Below, in pieces: positions 9,066 through 19,900 of a stretch of DNA of 64,000 bases. The translations under genes and the position numbers were made by a program. This DNA comes from a virus, in IMG/VR virus record IMGVR_UViG_3300031539_004800. One strand, 5' to 3'. The notes beneath the pieces were generated by a model. That model ran no database searches and was not told the origin of the DNA. It saw only the letters and a program-made list of their open reading frames with translations. The first letter of the stretch is position 1. Each line of letters begins with the position of its first letter.

Positions 9066-9953
9066 ATGGGAGCGTATAGAGGAAACGCAGACGTGGTCAT
9101 GGCGGACGCCGAAAGGATCGTCGAACGGCTTGAAACTACCAATGTTACCTTAATCGCACTCACGCAAGAATATCATTGCGCGTACTCTACGATTATGAGG
9201 GCTATCTATACGCGGATGTCGAAGGGGCAATACAGGCAAATCGCTGTAAGAAAATTAGTTAAGGGCAGCGAGTCAACGCAATTCAAAAAGGGACGCGAGA
9301 CGTGGAATAAGAACATGAAGGGGATGCACCTTTCGCGGGCAACCGAGTTCCACAAAGGCCACTTGCCGACAAATCATAAACACACAGGAGCAATCTCTAT
9401 CCGCAACGATAAGTGCGGCAAGCAATCCAGATGGATAAAGGTCTCAGGGGTCATACAGGGAAAGCATAAATGGATACCTTGTGCCCGATATCTTTGGGAA
9501 AAGGAAAACGGCCCCATCCCCGACGGCAAAATTGTAGCCCACACAAACGGCGACACGATGGATGATCGTCCAAAGAACCTGATATTGATTGACCGCCACG
9601 GCCTTATTAACCTGATGCGAAAGAACAATCCGGAGCACAGAAAGAAAGCAATCCGCAATCTCAAAAAGACCTGCAGGCGCCATCGGTTAGAGCGGGCAAA
9701 AAAGCAGCGCTTTCAGCTTAAACTTAAAAAGAGAAACGAAAAACAGGAGGCCGAGGACCGCAGGCACCGGGGGATTGCAGAGGCAGAGATAATCAAGCTG
9801 AGAGGTCCGGTTATTTCATGGTACGAGTGTAGGGGTTGCGGCTATGAAATGTCTCCGCCCAGGCCGCCCTGTCCGAAGTGCGGGCACCTGGTTTTCGAGG
9901 AAATAGAACAACCAGTCGAGTACGCGAGACGTTATGCAGCAATGAACGAATAA
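9066..9953 (+). CDS. HNH endonuclease with NUMOD-like N-terminal repeats
   Basis: TQFKKG, TEFHKGHLP, RYLWEKENGPIPDGKIVAHTNGDTMDDRPKNL. Confidence 0.8.
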   Translation: MGAYRGNADVVMADAERIVERLETTNVTLIALTQEYHCAYSTIMRAIYTRMSKGQYRQIAVRKLVKGSESTQFKKGRETWNKNMKGMHLSRATEFHKGHLPTNHKHTGAISIRNDKCGKQSRWIKVSGVIQGKHKWIPCARYLWEKENGPIPDGKIVAHTNGDTMDDRPKNLILIDRHGLINLMRKNNPEHRKKAIRNLKKTCRRHRLERAKKQRFQLKLKKRNEKQEAEDRRHRGIAEAEIIKLRGPVISWYECRGCGYEMSPPRPPCPKCGHLVFEEIEQPVEYARRYAAMNE

Positions 9954-9964
9954 GCAGGGAAGCT

Positions 9965-10915
9965 ATGTATATCATAACTGAATGGATTGAGCGCTACGAA
10001 GTCAATGATAAGGGGCAGCCGGCAAGGGTGGGCGACAAGCTCCGTGTCAGGCCGCTTGAGTATATCCGGTCAAAGCGGCACGGCCGGTCTCGCAGTGCCG
10101 GATTTGCTGCCATGCAGCGGCGGGCAGGTGATAGGGCGTTTGAGGTTTTTGGGCTTTTCCATAAATTCCTGGAAATTGCGGGCGACGAGGTTGGTGGTAA
10201 CAGGGGATCACTGCTTAATGCCCGAGGGAAACCGGCCACGATAAAAGATCTAGCCTTGATTCTATCTGTCCCCGAAGAAAGCATTGAATTTGCATTAAAT
10301 GTTCTTGTCGATGAAGGGGTTGGGTGGATACAAAAGGTGTCTCCCGAAAATTCCAGAAACTCCGTGAAATTCCTGGAAAATCAGGAAATTCCTGGAAAAT
10401 CAGGAAACGAAAATGAGGCAAAAGCCGTAAGCACTGATAATACAAGCACTTGTGAAAATGCCCCTGAAAACTCCGTGAAATTCCTGGAAAATCAGGAAAA
10501 AAGCGGCGGCTTATATAACGAAACGAAACGAAACGAAACCGAACAGAACGAAACAGAACGAAACGAAACACTCCCGGAATCTCAAGGCTCACAGCAAAAC
10601 TCACAGGCAGGCAATAATGGTGATGAGACGAATTTCGGAGATTTTCAATCTAATTCGTTTTCGCTTCGGTTCGTCTCGGTACTGGAGGGTATCTTAAAAA
10701 CACGCTCGAAGTCTGACAGGTCGGCAATCAGGAATCTCAACAACTGGCTCAACCTGCAGGTGCTGGCGAAAAGGTTCGATGATGGTGTGTTTAGGCGGGT
10801 GGCGGATATTGCGAATGAATCAAAAAGCGGTCGAAATCCGTTGGCCGTTTTCTTTTCAAGGATGGATGAGGAAATCGGGTACAGGGCAAGAGTATTTAAG
10901 GAGAAACAAAAATGA
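9965..10915 (+). CDS. Probable replication initiator (lambda O-like)
   Basis: N-terminal wHTH-like region, central low-complexity linker carrying iterons, position before RusA; ATG with GGA at 9965. Confidence 0.65.
   Translation: MYIITEWIERYEVNDKGQPARVGDKLRVRPLEYIRSKRHGRSRSAGFAAMQRRAGDRAFEVFGLFHKFLEIAGDEVGGNRGSLLNARGKPATIKDLALILSVPEESIEFALNVLVDEGVGWIQKVSPENSRNSVKFLENQEIPGKSGNENEAKAVSTDNTSTCENAPENSVKFLENQEKSGGLYNETKRNETEQNETERNETLPESQGSQQNSQAGNNGDETNFGDFQSNSFSLRFVSVLEGILKTRSKSDRSAIRNLNNWLNLQVLAKRFDDGVFRRVADIANESKSGRNPLAVFFSRMDEEIGYRARVFKEKQK
10370..10498. repeat. Probable origin iterons: three copies of TTCCTGGAAAATCAGGAA
   Basis: Exact copies at 10370, 10389 and 10481, each with TTCCTG/CAGGAA dyad symmetry, inside the initiator gene. 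Confidence 0.7.
10517..10569 (+). repeat. AAC-NN pentamer repeat (11 AAC triplets)
   Basis: AAC-GA x4, then AAC-CG, AG, GA, AG, GA, GA, AAC; encodes NETKRNETEQNETERNET. Confidence 0.85.
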
Positions 10916-14841: not shown

Positions 14842-15405
14842 ATGGGTTACAGAATGTTCACAAAAAGAGGTTATAGTCTTTTCGATGTTGCGTCGGCTTT
14901 GCAGAAATCAATCCGCAGGGGCGATGCTGAGCTGGCTGGTTATTTTGCTTTAGAGCTGGAGGCGAGCGGATACGTCAGATACTGCTGGAAACGACTGCTG
15001 GTAATATCGGCAGAAGATATAGCGGGCTGTGTCACGCAGGAAGTCATGGCACTTCATAAGGCGTTTATGCACGTCAACCAGGGAGCAAAAAAACTGGACA
15101 AGCCGGAGGGTAGATTGTTTTTGGCTAAGGCTGCGATCCTGTTGGCACAGGCAAAGAAGTGCAGGGACTCGGATCATCTTATAATCTTCGTTTACGACAG
15201 GAACAAAATAAATAATGCGAAGGTTGAAAAGATGATAAAGTCGCTGACGGAAGCCGAAAAAAAGGAAATACCGGGATATGCTTTTGATTGCCATACTATC
15301 AAGGGCAAGGCGATGGGTAAGACAAAAGAAGATTTTCTGAAGGAAGAGTTCGAGGCTTTGAGCCCGAGAGAGAAAGGTCTGTTCGATGGATATGTCGGAA
15401 CTTAA
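14842..15405 (+). CDS. Standalone MgsA/RarA C-terminal-domain-like protein
   Basis: DVASALQKSIRRGD...WKRLLVISAEDI...IPGYAFDCHT..GK. Confidence 0.75.
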   Translation: MGYRMFTKRGYSLFDVASALQKSIRRGDAELAGYFALELEASGYVRYCWKRLLVISAEDIAGCVTQEVMALHKAFMHVNQGAKKLDKPEGRLFLAKAAILLAQAKKCRDSDHLIIFVYDRNKINNAKVEKMIKSLTEAEKKEIPGYAFDCHTIKGKAMGKTKEDFLKEEFEALSPREKGLFDGYVGT

Positions 15406-16105
15406 AATAAAATGCTCTTACAGCAAAATTGTATTGACGGAGTCACTTGTCCCACACCCGGACAATCCTAACAAGCATAGCGAAACTCAAGTCAGTATGC
15501 TGGCAGACCTCATACGATCGGTCGGGTGGAGATATCCTATAACATCCAGCAACAGGTCGGGGTTTATCGTTTCCGGCCATGCAAGGTGGCTGGCGGCAAA
15601 ACGTCTCGGTCTTGAATCAGTGCCGGTTGATTTTCAGGATTACGACAACGAGGAAGATGAATTGCTGCAATTGTTAGGTGACAACAAAATACCAGAGCTG
15701 TCGCACATGGACAAAAACAAGGAAGCAGCGATACTGGAAAGGCTGAGAGCAAAAAATGTAAATACAATTCTGGCAGGCTACAATCCGAAAGACCTTCATG
15801 ATATATTGAATAGTGCTAATCTGCCCAAAGTGACAAAAGAGGATGAAATCCCTGAAATGGAGATATATCCTCATGAACATTACGACTATATCGTTCTTGT
15901 TTTCAAGAATGATTATGACTGGGTTAAGGCCTTGCAGAAATTCGGAATAACGGACGTGAAGTATGGCAATGTCGTTGGAAAAAAGAAGATCGGTCTTGGG
16001 AGAGTAATCGATGGAGCACGCTTTTTACAAGAATTTTTCAATGAGAAAAGTGATTCTGAGCCGGGGAAGGTGGGACACGATCACAACGCCAAATCTGATA
16101 CCTAA
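15386..16105 (+). CDS. ParB N-terminal-domain protein
   Basis: LVPHPDNPNKH...GWRYPIT...IVSGHARWLAAKRLGLESVPV...DNKIPE. Confidence 0.8.
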   Translation: MDMSELKIKCSYSKIVLTESLVPHPDNPNKHSETQVSMLADLIRSVGWRYPITSSNRSGFIVSGHARWLAAKRLGLESVPVDFQDYDNEEDELLQLLGDNKIPELSHMDKNKEAAILERLRAKNVNTILAGYNPKDLHDILNSANLPKVTKEDEIPEMEIYPHEHYDYIVLVFKNDYDWVKALQKFGITDVKYGNVVGKKKIGLGRVIDGARFLQEFFNEKSDSEPGKVGHDHNAKSDT

Positions 16106-16784
16106 CGCAACGCTTGTGGTTACAGATGAGGAAAGAGAAAAATACGACCACCTGAAAGGCTTGGTGTCTGAAATAGTTGAAATACCCGCATCGCTTCTCG
16201 GTATGCCAAAGATAAGAAACTGGATACTTGACAGGTTCGACGAGGAAGCGTTGTTCATGGCGGATGATGATCTTGAATCTGTCCACGTTATGACTCACGA
16301 GAAGGGCATGTTTATTTTCGATCCGGTCCTGGTGGAGCAGATAATTGATAATCTTTATATCTGCGCAAGAGACGCCGGGGCTAAATTGTTTGGATTCGGA
16401 ATGAATCACAAGCCGGTCGGATTCAATGAAAACAATCCATTCAGGATGGTGACGTGGATTGACCAGGGTTGGGGGATAATTGGCCGCGACCTTCGCTTCG
16501 ATGAGCATCAGTTCGTCAAAGAGGATTTGGATTTGTGCTTGTCAAGCATAATGAGGCACAGAATTATCTGGTCAGATCAGCGTTATGTATGGGTCGGGGA
16601 AAAAAGGGGCAACAAGGGCGGGCTGACTCAGTTTAGAACAGCGAGAAACGATAAAGATGACCTTGATTATTTGCAGCGTAAGTGGGGAAGGTATCTGGGC
16701 GTAAAACGCAAACAATCGGTTATTGGTCTTAGTGTTAATGTTCGCAGAAAGCAGCCTTTGATTCCGAGTTCGAGGGTTCACTGA
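16041..16784 (+). CDS. GT-A fold glycosyltransferase-like protein (GREB1/TAGT-like)
   Basis: ILSRGR, RNWILD, FMADDDL, KEDLDLCL, NKGGL..R, L..KWG motifs. Confidence 0.65.
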   Translation: MRKVILSRGRWDTITTPNLIPNATLVVTDEEREKYDHLKGLVSEIVEIPASLLGMPKIRNWILDRFDEEALFMADDDLESVHVMTHEKGMFIFDPVLVEQIIDNLYICARDAGAKLFGFGMNHKPVGFNENNPFRMVTWIDQGWGIIGRDLRFDEHQFVKEDLDLCLSSIMRHRIIWSDQRYVWVGEKRGNKGGLTQFRTARNDKDDLDYLQRKWGRYLGVKRKQSVIGLSVNVRRKQPLIPSSRVH

Positions 16785-17893: not shown

Positions 17894-18415
17894 ATGGAAA
17901 CAAGACGAATTACAATCGCTGAAATGCACACGGACACAAGAATTCTTTACAATGTCTTGGAAAGTAAATTTATAAAGAACAAGAAAACCGAAATCAGCTA
18001 CGAGGAATTATCGGCAAGCATCGGGCGGAATGTTCAAATGGATGCTCGCGGATTATTAAGCACGGCCCGCAAAAGAATTGAGAAGGATTTTCAGATTGTG
18101 ATTGAGGCCGTAATGAACGAAGGGCTTCGAGTGACTACTGATTACGCCGGCATTGGCGGAAAAACAAATGCTCACTTGCATCGTCACTCTCAAAAACACA
18201 GAAAGAGACTTCTCAATGCGATTGCAGGAAAGGAACTGACGCCGGAACAAACACTTCCTTTGGCCGTGGAACTCAGTAAGCTGGGAGCGACGGCCCTGTT
18301 CACAAGACGCCAAACACCAAAACAATTAACCGCGTATATCCAGGAGCATAATATACTGGAATTGCCAACTCAGCAGACACTTAAATTGTTTCAAAACGGA
18401 CATAAGACAACTTGA
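17894..18415 (+). CDS. Putative wHTH protein, candidate partner of the RAMP system
   Basis: ISYEELSASIGRNV...LLSTARKRIE resembles HTH; its stop codon is the first unit of array 1. Confidence 0.6.
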   Translation: METRRITIAEMHTDTRILYNVLESKFIKNKKTEISYEELSASIGRNVQMDARGLLSTARKRIEKDFQIVIEAVMNEGLRVTTDYAGIGGKTNAHLHRHSQKHRKRLLNAIAGKELTPEQTLPLAVELSKLGATALFTRRQTPKQLTAYIQEHNILELPTQQTLKLFQNGHKTT

Positions 18416-18501
18416 CAGGACGTGACTCGACCCGACTCGACTGGACGGGATTTGACAGGACTTGACATAACCCGACAAGACGCGACCCGACAAGACAAGA
18501 C
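18412..18501 (+). repeat. NN-GAC pentamer array 1 (18 units), candidate guide RNA
   Basis: 16 of 18 triplets are GAC; NN = TT AG GT TC CC TC TG GG TT AG TT AT CC AA GC CC AA AA. Confidence 0.9.
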
Positions 18502-18528
18502 GAGTTTAGGAGGTGAAACGAAATAAAC

Positions 18529-18613
18529 GAGACAAGACCGAACCAGACTAGACCTGAATAGACAGGATGGGACCAGACGGGACTTGACGAGACGCGACCC
18601 GACAAGACAAGAC
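18529..18613 (+). repeat. NN-GAC pentamer array 2 (17 units), candidate guide RNA
   Basis: NN = GA AA CG CA TA CT TA AG GG CA GG TT GA GC CC AA AA; T-tract follows. Confidence 0.9.
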
Positions 18614-18663
18614 AGGAATTTTTATTCAAGACAACACATTTTTATTTAAGAAAGGAAAGAATA

Positions 18664-19227
18664 ATGATTACAGTAAAAGCAAAACTCAAATCAGCAAGCC
18701 CGTATGGGCAGAGCAGGTATCATAACACGGAAAAGCTCGAAAAGGAAAGCGCGGCGGATTACGAAAAACGCACATGGAAGAACCGCTGCCATACCGATGA
18801 CAAAGGGATGGTCTTTATCCCACCGTCGGCTTTCAAGAACTGCTTATCGGAGGCGGCTAAATATCTCTCAATTCAAATACCAGGCAAAGGTAAGGCCACA
18901 TACACAAAGCATTTTGAGGCCGGAGTTATGGTCTCTGAGATAGTGCCTCTTGGAATTCACATAGACAAAATGCAACCACTATGGCTGTTTGTTCCTGCCG
19001 ACGGCAAGCGTGGCGGGTCTAAGCGAGTAGAAAAGTGCTTTCCTATCACGCAGCAATGGGAAGCCACTGTGACATTCTACGTTTTTGACGAAACTATCAC
19101 AAAAGATGTTTTTAGGTATGTACTGGAACAGGCGGGGAAATTCATCGGTATAGGATTTTCCAGACCTCGGAATAATGGATTTTTTGGCCGATTCGAAGTG
19201 GTCGAAATGTCATGGAATAAATCTTGA
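18664..19227 (+). CDS. Standalone RAMP/Cas7-like protein (Vipr-like)
   Basis: N-terminal strand plus SP, FIPPSAFKNCL (cf. RAMP IPgSslKG.lR), C-terminal Gly-rich loop GKFIGIGFSRPRNNGFFGRFEV; flanked by pentamer arrays. Confidence 0.75.
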   Translation: MITVKAKLKSASPYGQSRYHNTEKLEKESAADYEKRTWKNRCHTDDKGMVFIPPSAFKNCLSEAAKYLSIQIPGKGKATYTKHFEAGVMVSEIVPLGIHIDKMQPLWLFVPADGKRGGSKRVEKCFPITQQWEATVTFYVFDETITKDVFRYVLEQAGKFIGIGFSRPRNNGFFGRFEVVEMSWNKS

Positions 19228-19308
19228 CGGGACCCGACATGACGAGACAGGACAGGACTGGACCTGACTGGACGCGACTCGATACGACAAGACCCGACAT
19301 GACAAGAC
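19224..19308 (+). repeat. NN-GAC pentamer array 3 (17 units), candidate guide RNA
   Basis: NN = TT GG CC AT GA AG AG TG CT TG GC TC AC AA CC AT AA; followed by AAGC and T9. Confidence 0.9.
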
Positions 19309-19347
19309 AAGCTTTTTTTTATTGAGGGCGTAGAAAACGAAATAAAC

Positions 19348-19412
19348 GAGACAAGACCTGACTGGACAGGACATGATGAGATTCGATGAGACGCGACGCT
19401 ACGAGACGAGAC
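19348..19412 (+). repeat. NN-GAC/GAT pentamer array 4 (13 units), candidate guide RNA
   Basis: NN = GA AA CT TG AG AT GA TC GA GC GC GA GA; T-tract follows. Confidence 0.85.
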
Positions 19413-19900
19413 AGAATAGTTTTTTCAATTTGGGGAGTCGGTCAATCCGGCTCTCCATTTTTAGGATTCTCGATATGCACGAACTATTGGAAATGCTCGG
19501 CGGAGTTTACGGATGGTGTTGGTTTGAACATACGGGGCAATATTGGTATTGTTTGCTGTATTGGCCGGCAGAAGAAAAAAAGCCTTGCCGCTGGATTTTG
19601 TCTCGACGGCCTCTTATAATACTTGCCGGGTATATGGGTAGAAATCGGGGGCTGCATTGGGATAGAAAGAGAAGGTGAAAAATGGAAAAGATAAAAAAGT
19701 GGGGCGAATTAAAAAAATATGTAGAAAAACAAGGCATCTCGGATGATACAATAATTAACTCTATAGACATAGATACTGAATCAAATAAAGAAATGAAAAC
19801 TTGGTTCGATTCAGATGGAGAGGCAAATATTTCAAATGAGTACTATAATCGCTAAGATGGTATATTCGACAGGTCTTAATTAAGAAAGAGACGGTGAGTT

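Follow-up and report, generated by a model that had tools for sequence, protein, structure and literature searches.

Four tandem arrays of five-base units surround two genes of a phage, and they raise two questions: what the arrays are, and what is to be made of the ends that several of them share. The window (the whole stretch of DNA that was analysed, 64 kb) is phage DNA, with genes including those for a major head protein and RecE/RecT. The best explanation of the locus as a whole, and a highly probable one, is that it is a phage cassette of VIPR, a CRISPR-related gene silencer reported in 2026 whose architecture is described in bioRxiv 10.64898/2026.04.26.720920. Judged by its sequence, the locus is a member of the VIPR family, and it is not of SUSP1 type II by scaffold or by tail.

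Genes and arrays of the cassette

The cassette runs on the + strand in the order vap, two guides, vipr, two guides and terminator, with the following features:

17894-18415 (+): vap-like accessory gene, an ORF of 173 aa with homologs; its stop codon lies inside unit 1 of array 1
18412-18501 (+): array 1, putative vrRNA; 18 NN-GAY units, the last two NN being AA
18502-18528 (+): spacer between arrays 1 and 2, with a 13-nt A-rich leader at its 3′ end (18516-18528); no significant fold (z −1.0)
18529-18613 (+): array 2, putative vrRNA; 17 units, the last two NN being AA
18614-18663 (+): A/U-rich end of array 2 and vipr ribosome-binding region, near-identical in a 91%-identical relative
18664-19227 (+): vipr, encoding a 187-aa stand-alone RAMP (Cas7-like) that matches PDB 36pp; F165 replaces the clade's usual G-loop Arg
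19224-19313 (+): array 3, putative vrRNA; 17 units and one degenerate AA unit, with the vipr stop codon in unit 1
19313-19347 (+): T8 run and spacer, with the second copy of the 13-nt leader at its end (19335-19347); 19318-19347 is identical in a close relative
19348-19417 (+): array 4, putative vrRNA; 13 units and one degenerate unit, then a T6 run
19431-19462 (+): intrinsic-terminator-like hairpin (11 bp and a T run) that closes the cassette; z −3.0; kept in the relatives L105 and L144

The 187-aa product of vipr matches SUSP1 Vipr (PDB 36pp) with E-values of 1.4e-5 as a single sequence and 6e-13 as a profile, and a tblastn match to the SUSP1 genome spans 97% of its length. Its predicted model (pLDDT 97.6) finds Cas7/Csm3 RAMP folds with E-values down to 1.7e-7, and the RRM core, thumb and G-loop of a stand-alone RAMP are all present, with Gly162 of the G-loop invariant in 119 sequences. 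The protein is a Vipr homolog with a RAMP fold, and on this ground we regard the four NN-GAC arrays as putative VIPR guide RNAs. The 173-aa protein encoded upstream is predicted to have a winged-helix N-terminal half and long helices (pLDDT 86); it gives only weak wHTH fold matches (E ≥ 0.05), its similarity to SUSP1 Vap1 is not significant, and a homolog precedes vipr in the locus L146. No repeat-spacer (CRISPR) family was found at 16-22 kb, and the locus is a minimal pairing of vipr and vap in viral DNA without a CRISPR array, the vap being assigned from its position and the weak wHTH matches. Upstream, at 14842-16784, lie MgsA C-terminal-domain, ParB-N and TAGT glycosyltransferase genes, a possible DNA-modification cassette.

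Each array is an intergenic run of 13-18 tandem pentamers that combine a fixed GAY triplet (the scaffold) with a variable dinucleotide (NN), as in VIPR. A occupies the second scaffold position in 97% of units, and runs of at least four NN-GAY units are confined to the four arrays on both strands of the 64 kb. Reading the arrays on the minus strand, with a GTC scaffold (GTC systems exist in the clade), was rejected because, in every scaffold class tested, the AA units described below are at the 3′ end when the vipr strand is read. The initial annotation had supposed that guides are cut from the mRNA, and this is plausible from the DNA, in which there is no promoter above chance and one terminator, after array 4. 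The 13-nt leader was rejected as a sigma-70 promoter, there being no site in it and no excess of sites over shuffles. Within the spacer between arrays 1 and 2, a perfect Shine-Dalgarno-like AGGAGGTG is present at 18507-18514 with no start codon after it, and the other spacers and L105 likewise contain GGAGG or GAGG.

The ends of the arrays

Several identities among the array ends had been pointed out in the initial annotation, and these are borne out. CTTGAC occurs at 18411 and 19223, and its TGA (18413-15 and 19225-27) terminates ORFs 17894-18415 and 18664-19227, so that arrays 1 and 3 do begin at stop codons; their common TTGAC start arises because the stop codon borrows the GA of the scaffold, and L144 likewise overlaps stop and scaffold, but with TAA. 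A 23-nt string present in exactly two copies (18479 and 18591) ends arrays 1 and 2, and array 3 ends similarly (cc-at-aa-aa), whereas array 4 ends differently (ga-ga-ag) and without terminal AA. The 23-nt identity consists mostly of fixed scaffold and of AA units that are found clade-wide; the only additional shared NN are GC and CC, for which the chance is about 0.006 per pair.

The clade-wide occurrence of these AA units was established from 145 loci, reduced to 108 non-redundant ones (Vipr proteins less than 90% identical), with array limits defined from the scaffold alone. In 103 of the 108, arrays lie no more than 1.5 kb from vipr and on the same strand, giving 317 arrays. By scaffold class the loci comprise GG (46), GA (19), CG (18), GT (9), CT (6) and others. 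The scaffolds GTC, GTT, CTC, CAC and CGC are found in L001, L007, L020, L124, L128 and L054, whose Vipr proteins are 47-65% identical to that of the window; the scaffold therefore changes quickly. AA is the NN in 58% of last units, 47% of penultimate and 26% of third-last units against 8.4% of central ones (317 arrays, 103 loci), and the values are 60% (last), 48% (penultimate) and 8% (centre) when one array is taken per locus. This bias is seen in all five main scaffold classes (GG, GA, GT, CG and CT), and NN entropy drops from 3.94 to 2.42 bits at the 3′ end. At the 5′ end it is 3.8-3.9 of 4 bits, with TT at 9% (317 arrays). The earlier proposal of conserved terminal units around a variable core thus holds for the 3′ end but fails for the 5′ end. 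When the arrays of one locus are compared, the NN agree in 44% and 31% of cases at the last two units, in about 9% at central units and in 15% at the first.

The sequences that follow the arrays appear to be unstructured. Spacers (27-34 nt, A/U-rich) and tails are no more stably folded than shuffled sequences (z −1.0 to +1.2, with a program that does not model pseudoknots), Rfam gave no match, and the sole significant hairpin is the terminator, at 19431-19457. Inter-array hairpins were rejected as a candidate because no fold rose above shuffles, and a structured tail of about 40 nt after each array, like the SUSP1 pseudoknot, is not seen, the spacers being short and without a significant fold. 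We infer that the AA units and the short A/U-rich end are probably the clade's minimal non-targeting 3′ end. In the three guide-target pairs found among relatives (see below), the last two units mismatch every time, an anecdotal number of cases.

Close relatives show how the arrays change. A 91%-identical relative is present on 62-kb contigs (L102 and L105) binned with Sedimentisphaerales, a host assignment only as good as the binning. In L105 genes, scaffold and terminator are retained, as is the spacer that precedes array 4, but nearly all NN are changed, and the differences among close relatives lie mostly at NN and at the third base of the scaffold. Alignment of homologous loci, which the initial annotation had proposed, shows NN cores being replaced while the scaffold stays. 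The layout of L105 is 3+2, vap being followed by three arrays and vipr by two. A third locus, L144:2049-2700 (Logan ERR9465629), has a vap 92% identical to that of the window and one GAC array joined to the same terminator, with no vipr there; the array combines the beginning of array 1 with the end of array 4, and the locus is possibly an orphan guide, or one that lost vipr through recombination between arrays 1 and 4. At L105:3063-3200 there is a 27-unit array with a fourfold GC-TC duplication, and long arrays, or arrays with internal duplications, are present in L146 and L014 too.

The shared ends could on this evidence be a footprint of array multiplication or exchange, by recombination or gene conversion anchored on the constant ends, with AA having no role between RNA and protein. 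The internal duplications (GC-TC in L105, and those in L146) fit such a history, as do the different array counts of 91%-identical phages, the GC-CC-AA common to window arrays 1 and 2 and to array 5 of L105, and the fusion in L144 without vipr. However, the same AA bias is found across proteins about 45-70% identical and across five scaffolds, and for this reason homogenisation within loci would be insufficient without selection; we consider the footprint explanation unlikely.

The full model of the initial annotation, in which two fixed gene-plus-two-guide modules carry 5′ and 3′ units and a 24-nt leader that act as processing or loading handles, is improbable. It can draw on the exact identities in the window, on a stop codon within unit 1 in the window, L105 and L144, and on the 13-nt leader, which precedes all three internal arrays of L102/L105 with 0-2 changes; at least 10 of 13 upstream bases are common to about 10% of within-locus array pairs, against 0.1% between loci. 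Nevertheless, the 5′ units of the 317 arrays are near random, and the leader is shorter than had been described. The 24-nt string before arrays 2 and 4 does occur identically, in exactly two copies (18516 and 19335), but its last 11 nt are array units 1-2 and one base, so that the true leader is the 13 nt of 18516-18528 and 19335-19347, and the NN inside the string differ in the 91% relative. Likewise, a relative from soil runs (X4-X6) is identical over 19318-19347 and diverges from 19348-49, where array 4 has its first NN, again at 19357-59 and then at NN further on; 13 of the 24 bases are therefore constant, and the remainder is variable array. The leader was not found before the arrays of distant loci. 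The modular layout itself is not supported: the close relative is 3+2, 2+2 occurs in 3 of 95 loci (1+1 is commonest, with 24), and the first array mostly begins 1-13 nt past the vipr stop, an overlap of 4 nt between stop and array being seen in only 4 of 82 loci. In the VIPR reading that we prefer, the 13-nt leader would be a lineage-specific inter-array spacer, spread via duplication of array units and with a putative function only.

That the arrays are a slippage-made microsatellite, or repeats bound by protein at the DNA level, and not guides can hardly be right: a similar NN-AAC run of period 5 lies inside an unrelated ORF (10510-10569) and no target was found for the window's guides, but all 16 NN are used, adjacent pairs are identical in 2 of 51 cases against 2.5 expected from shuffling, arrays accompany Vipr homologs in nearly all loci of the survey, and homologous arrays have been shown to be guides (bioRxiv 10.64898/2026.04.26.720920). 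The initial annotation had argued against slippage, rightly as far as the range of NN and the unlikeness of neighbours go, but not for the local unit duplications of L105 and L146, because of which slippage or unequal exchange probably has a part in how arrays change. The run at 10510-10569 belongs to ORF 9878-10915 (a weak replisome-organiser match), where it encodes an N-E-T repeat; it is probably an initiator linker or iteron, and resembles the A-rich leader in composition only.

Targets and the reading of the scaffold

Searches of the window, MAGs, class genomes, IMG/VR and metagenomes found no target for the four guides. Within the 64 kb no self-target rose above shuffles at a skip of 0, 1 or 2, no target for guide 3 was seen in either of the close relative's two MAGs, and guides 1-3 had no target with up to 3 mismatches in 301 genomes of the MAGs' class. 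Exact-seed matches in IMG/VR and metagenomes (L148-L158) were treated as chance, since none extends beyond the seed; several of those of guide 3 fall on a common amidohydrolase-like DAHSH motif.

Comparison of 254 guides with all fetched loci gave three matches with E < 0.01 at skip 1 and none at skip 0 or 2, with 0-1 in shuffles; these three pairs come from relatives with CGC and GGC scaffolds. Two CGC guides (L118:3082 and L090:608) decode the vipr G-loop and IPGKGK motif of other phages with a 1-nt skip in codon frame, spelling the first two codon bases of these conserved motifs, and match other phages' vipr at 25/26 versus 21/26 in their own, and at 22/26 versus 18/26. They would represent VIPR directed against VIPR in the clade, in agreement with the vipr-targeting guides reported in bioRxiv 10.64898/2026.10.15.759431. 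The GGC guide L031:1848 matches 19/20 NN bases upstream of another phage's vipr (L052:2121). A 1-nt skip rule is thus supported for the clade by sequence matches of CGC and GGC relatives rather than of GAC guides. NN usage correlates weakly with codon positions 1-2 (rho up to about 0.4), and this was left unused.

How the protein might accommodate a GAC scaffold is suggested by the residues that vary with it. The residues D177, W178 and R138, which read guanine in SUSP1, align with F165, S166 and F126 and are not kept, and R179 of the pyrimidine pocket is kept, as R167. The G-loop position 165, which aligns with SUSP1 D177, is the column most informative on the middle base of the scaffold. Arg165 is present in 63 of 65 G-scaffold loci, and a residue other than Arg is found in 16 of 20 A-scaffold loci versus 6 of 81 others (Fisher P 2e-10, a statistic that ignores kinship). 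The replacements are of six kinds (F, as in the window, and Y, V, S, T and Q), and Glu106 is mostly lost along with Arg165. On a quick tree, which is poorly resolved, the GA loci are scattered, their 19 rows requiring 13 changes, and the nearest non-A relative carries Arg165 in 19 of 20 A-scaffold cases; together these suggest repeated origins. SUSP1 R138 makes contact with G2, but almost the whole clade has Phe or Tyr at this position, and for this reason Arg165 may take over the role of R138. The loss of Arg165 thus appears to track the GAC scaffold, a new lead in the form of a correlation on a poorly resolved tree, and the GAC scaffold probably became usable via loss of Arg165 and of the co-varying Glu106. 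Position 110 and its neighbours co-vary with G versus C at the first scaffold base.

Proposed mechanism and relation to known systems

If the locus works as SUSP1 VIPR does, one Vipr protomer would bind each five-base unit with the fixed triplet flipped out, and the NN pairs would read DNA with one skipped base, so that transcription of competing elements is silenced. The whole cassette is probably transcribed into a single RNA, of which the arrays coated by Vipr would survive as guides. Array number is fluid. Target information would start at the 5′ end, from the first unit onward, and the clade would lack a folded 3′ tail, its constant 3′ end being the terminal AA units and the A/U-rich end. 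The AA units, probably unpaired with the target, may start or cap the filament or set a limit to nuclease trimming. The guides of SUSP1 carry a terminal pseudoknot tail, and it is near this tail that the filament is resolved first, further protomers appearing in the 3′-to-5′ direction (bioRxiv 10.64898/2026.04.26.720927). We tentatively propose, as a possibility that falls somewhat short of an even chance, that in a large Vipr clade with tail-less guides 2-3 AA units start or cap the filament, and that the middle base of the scaffold (G/U versus A) is set mainly by Arg165 with Glu106.

VIPR and the GAC/NN scaffold are already known, and the locus itself is no surprise. What is added is that guides in this clade seem to have a few AA units, and not a folded tail, as their constant part, so that the last 2-3 units should be omitted when guides are reprogrammed or targets predicted. 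Through the link between residue 165 and scaffold, the way in which protein and repeat code change with each other can be tested directly, and the link could lead to RNA-guided repressors that are orthogonal and very small. If the reading of AA caps and Arg165 is true, GAC systems would be orthogonal to GGY systems and protected from hijacking by the solo guides of rivals, and scaffold preference would be switchable by one or two substitutions.

The locus resembles SUSP1 VIPR type II in its stand-alone RAMP of about 190 aa (about 26% identity, with the G-loop aligned), in its single accessory gene (vap1 in SUSP1, here with a probable winged helix), in being phage-borne, and in having the genes surrounded by four pentamer arrays, some 70-90 nt long, with a variable core and a constant 3′ part. 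It differs in several respects. First, the scaffold is GAC rather than GGY; the constructs made for SUSP1 include a GGY>GAY mutant, and perturbing GGY is reported to have abolished silencing (bioRxiv 10.64898/2026.04.26.720920 and.720927). Second, the order is vap-arrays-vipr-arrays. Third, 2-3 AA units stand as the constant 3′ part in place of a 40-nt pseudoknot tail. Fourth, D177, W178 and R138 are replaced, and the vap is not significantly similar to Vap1. The same GAC/NN motif adjoining a Vipr-like fold is found in the non-canonical VIPR clusters of bioRxiv 10.64898/2026.10.21.760802, a computational account whose accessible part describes GAC/NN or CAC/NN clusters beside Vipr-like folds and mentions no terminal AA, 5′/3′ asymmetry or scaffold-tied residue. 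Finally, unlike Class 1 CRISPR, the locus has no nearby repeat-spacer array, a gapped code replaces contiguous pairing and there is a single RAMP gene, yet with the crRNA and Cas7/Csm3 backbone of those systems it shares the RAMP fold, periodic base flipping and a constant handle that caps the variable part.
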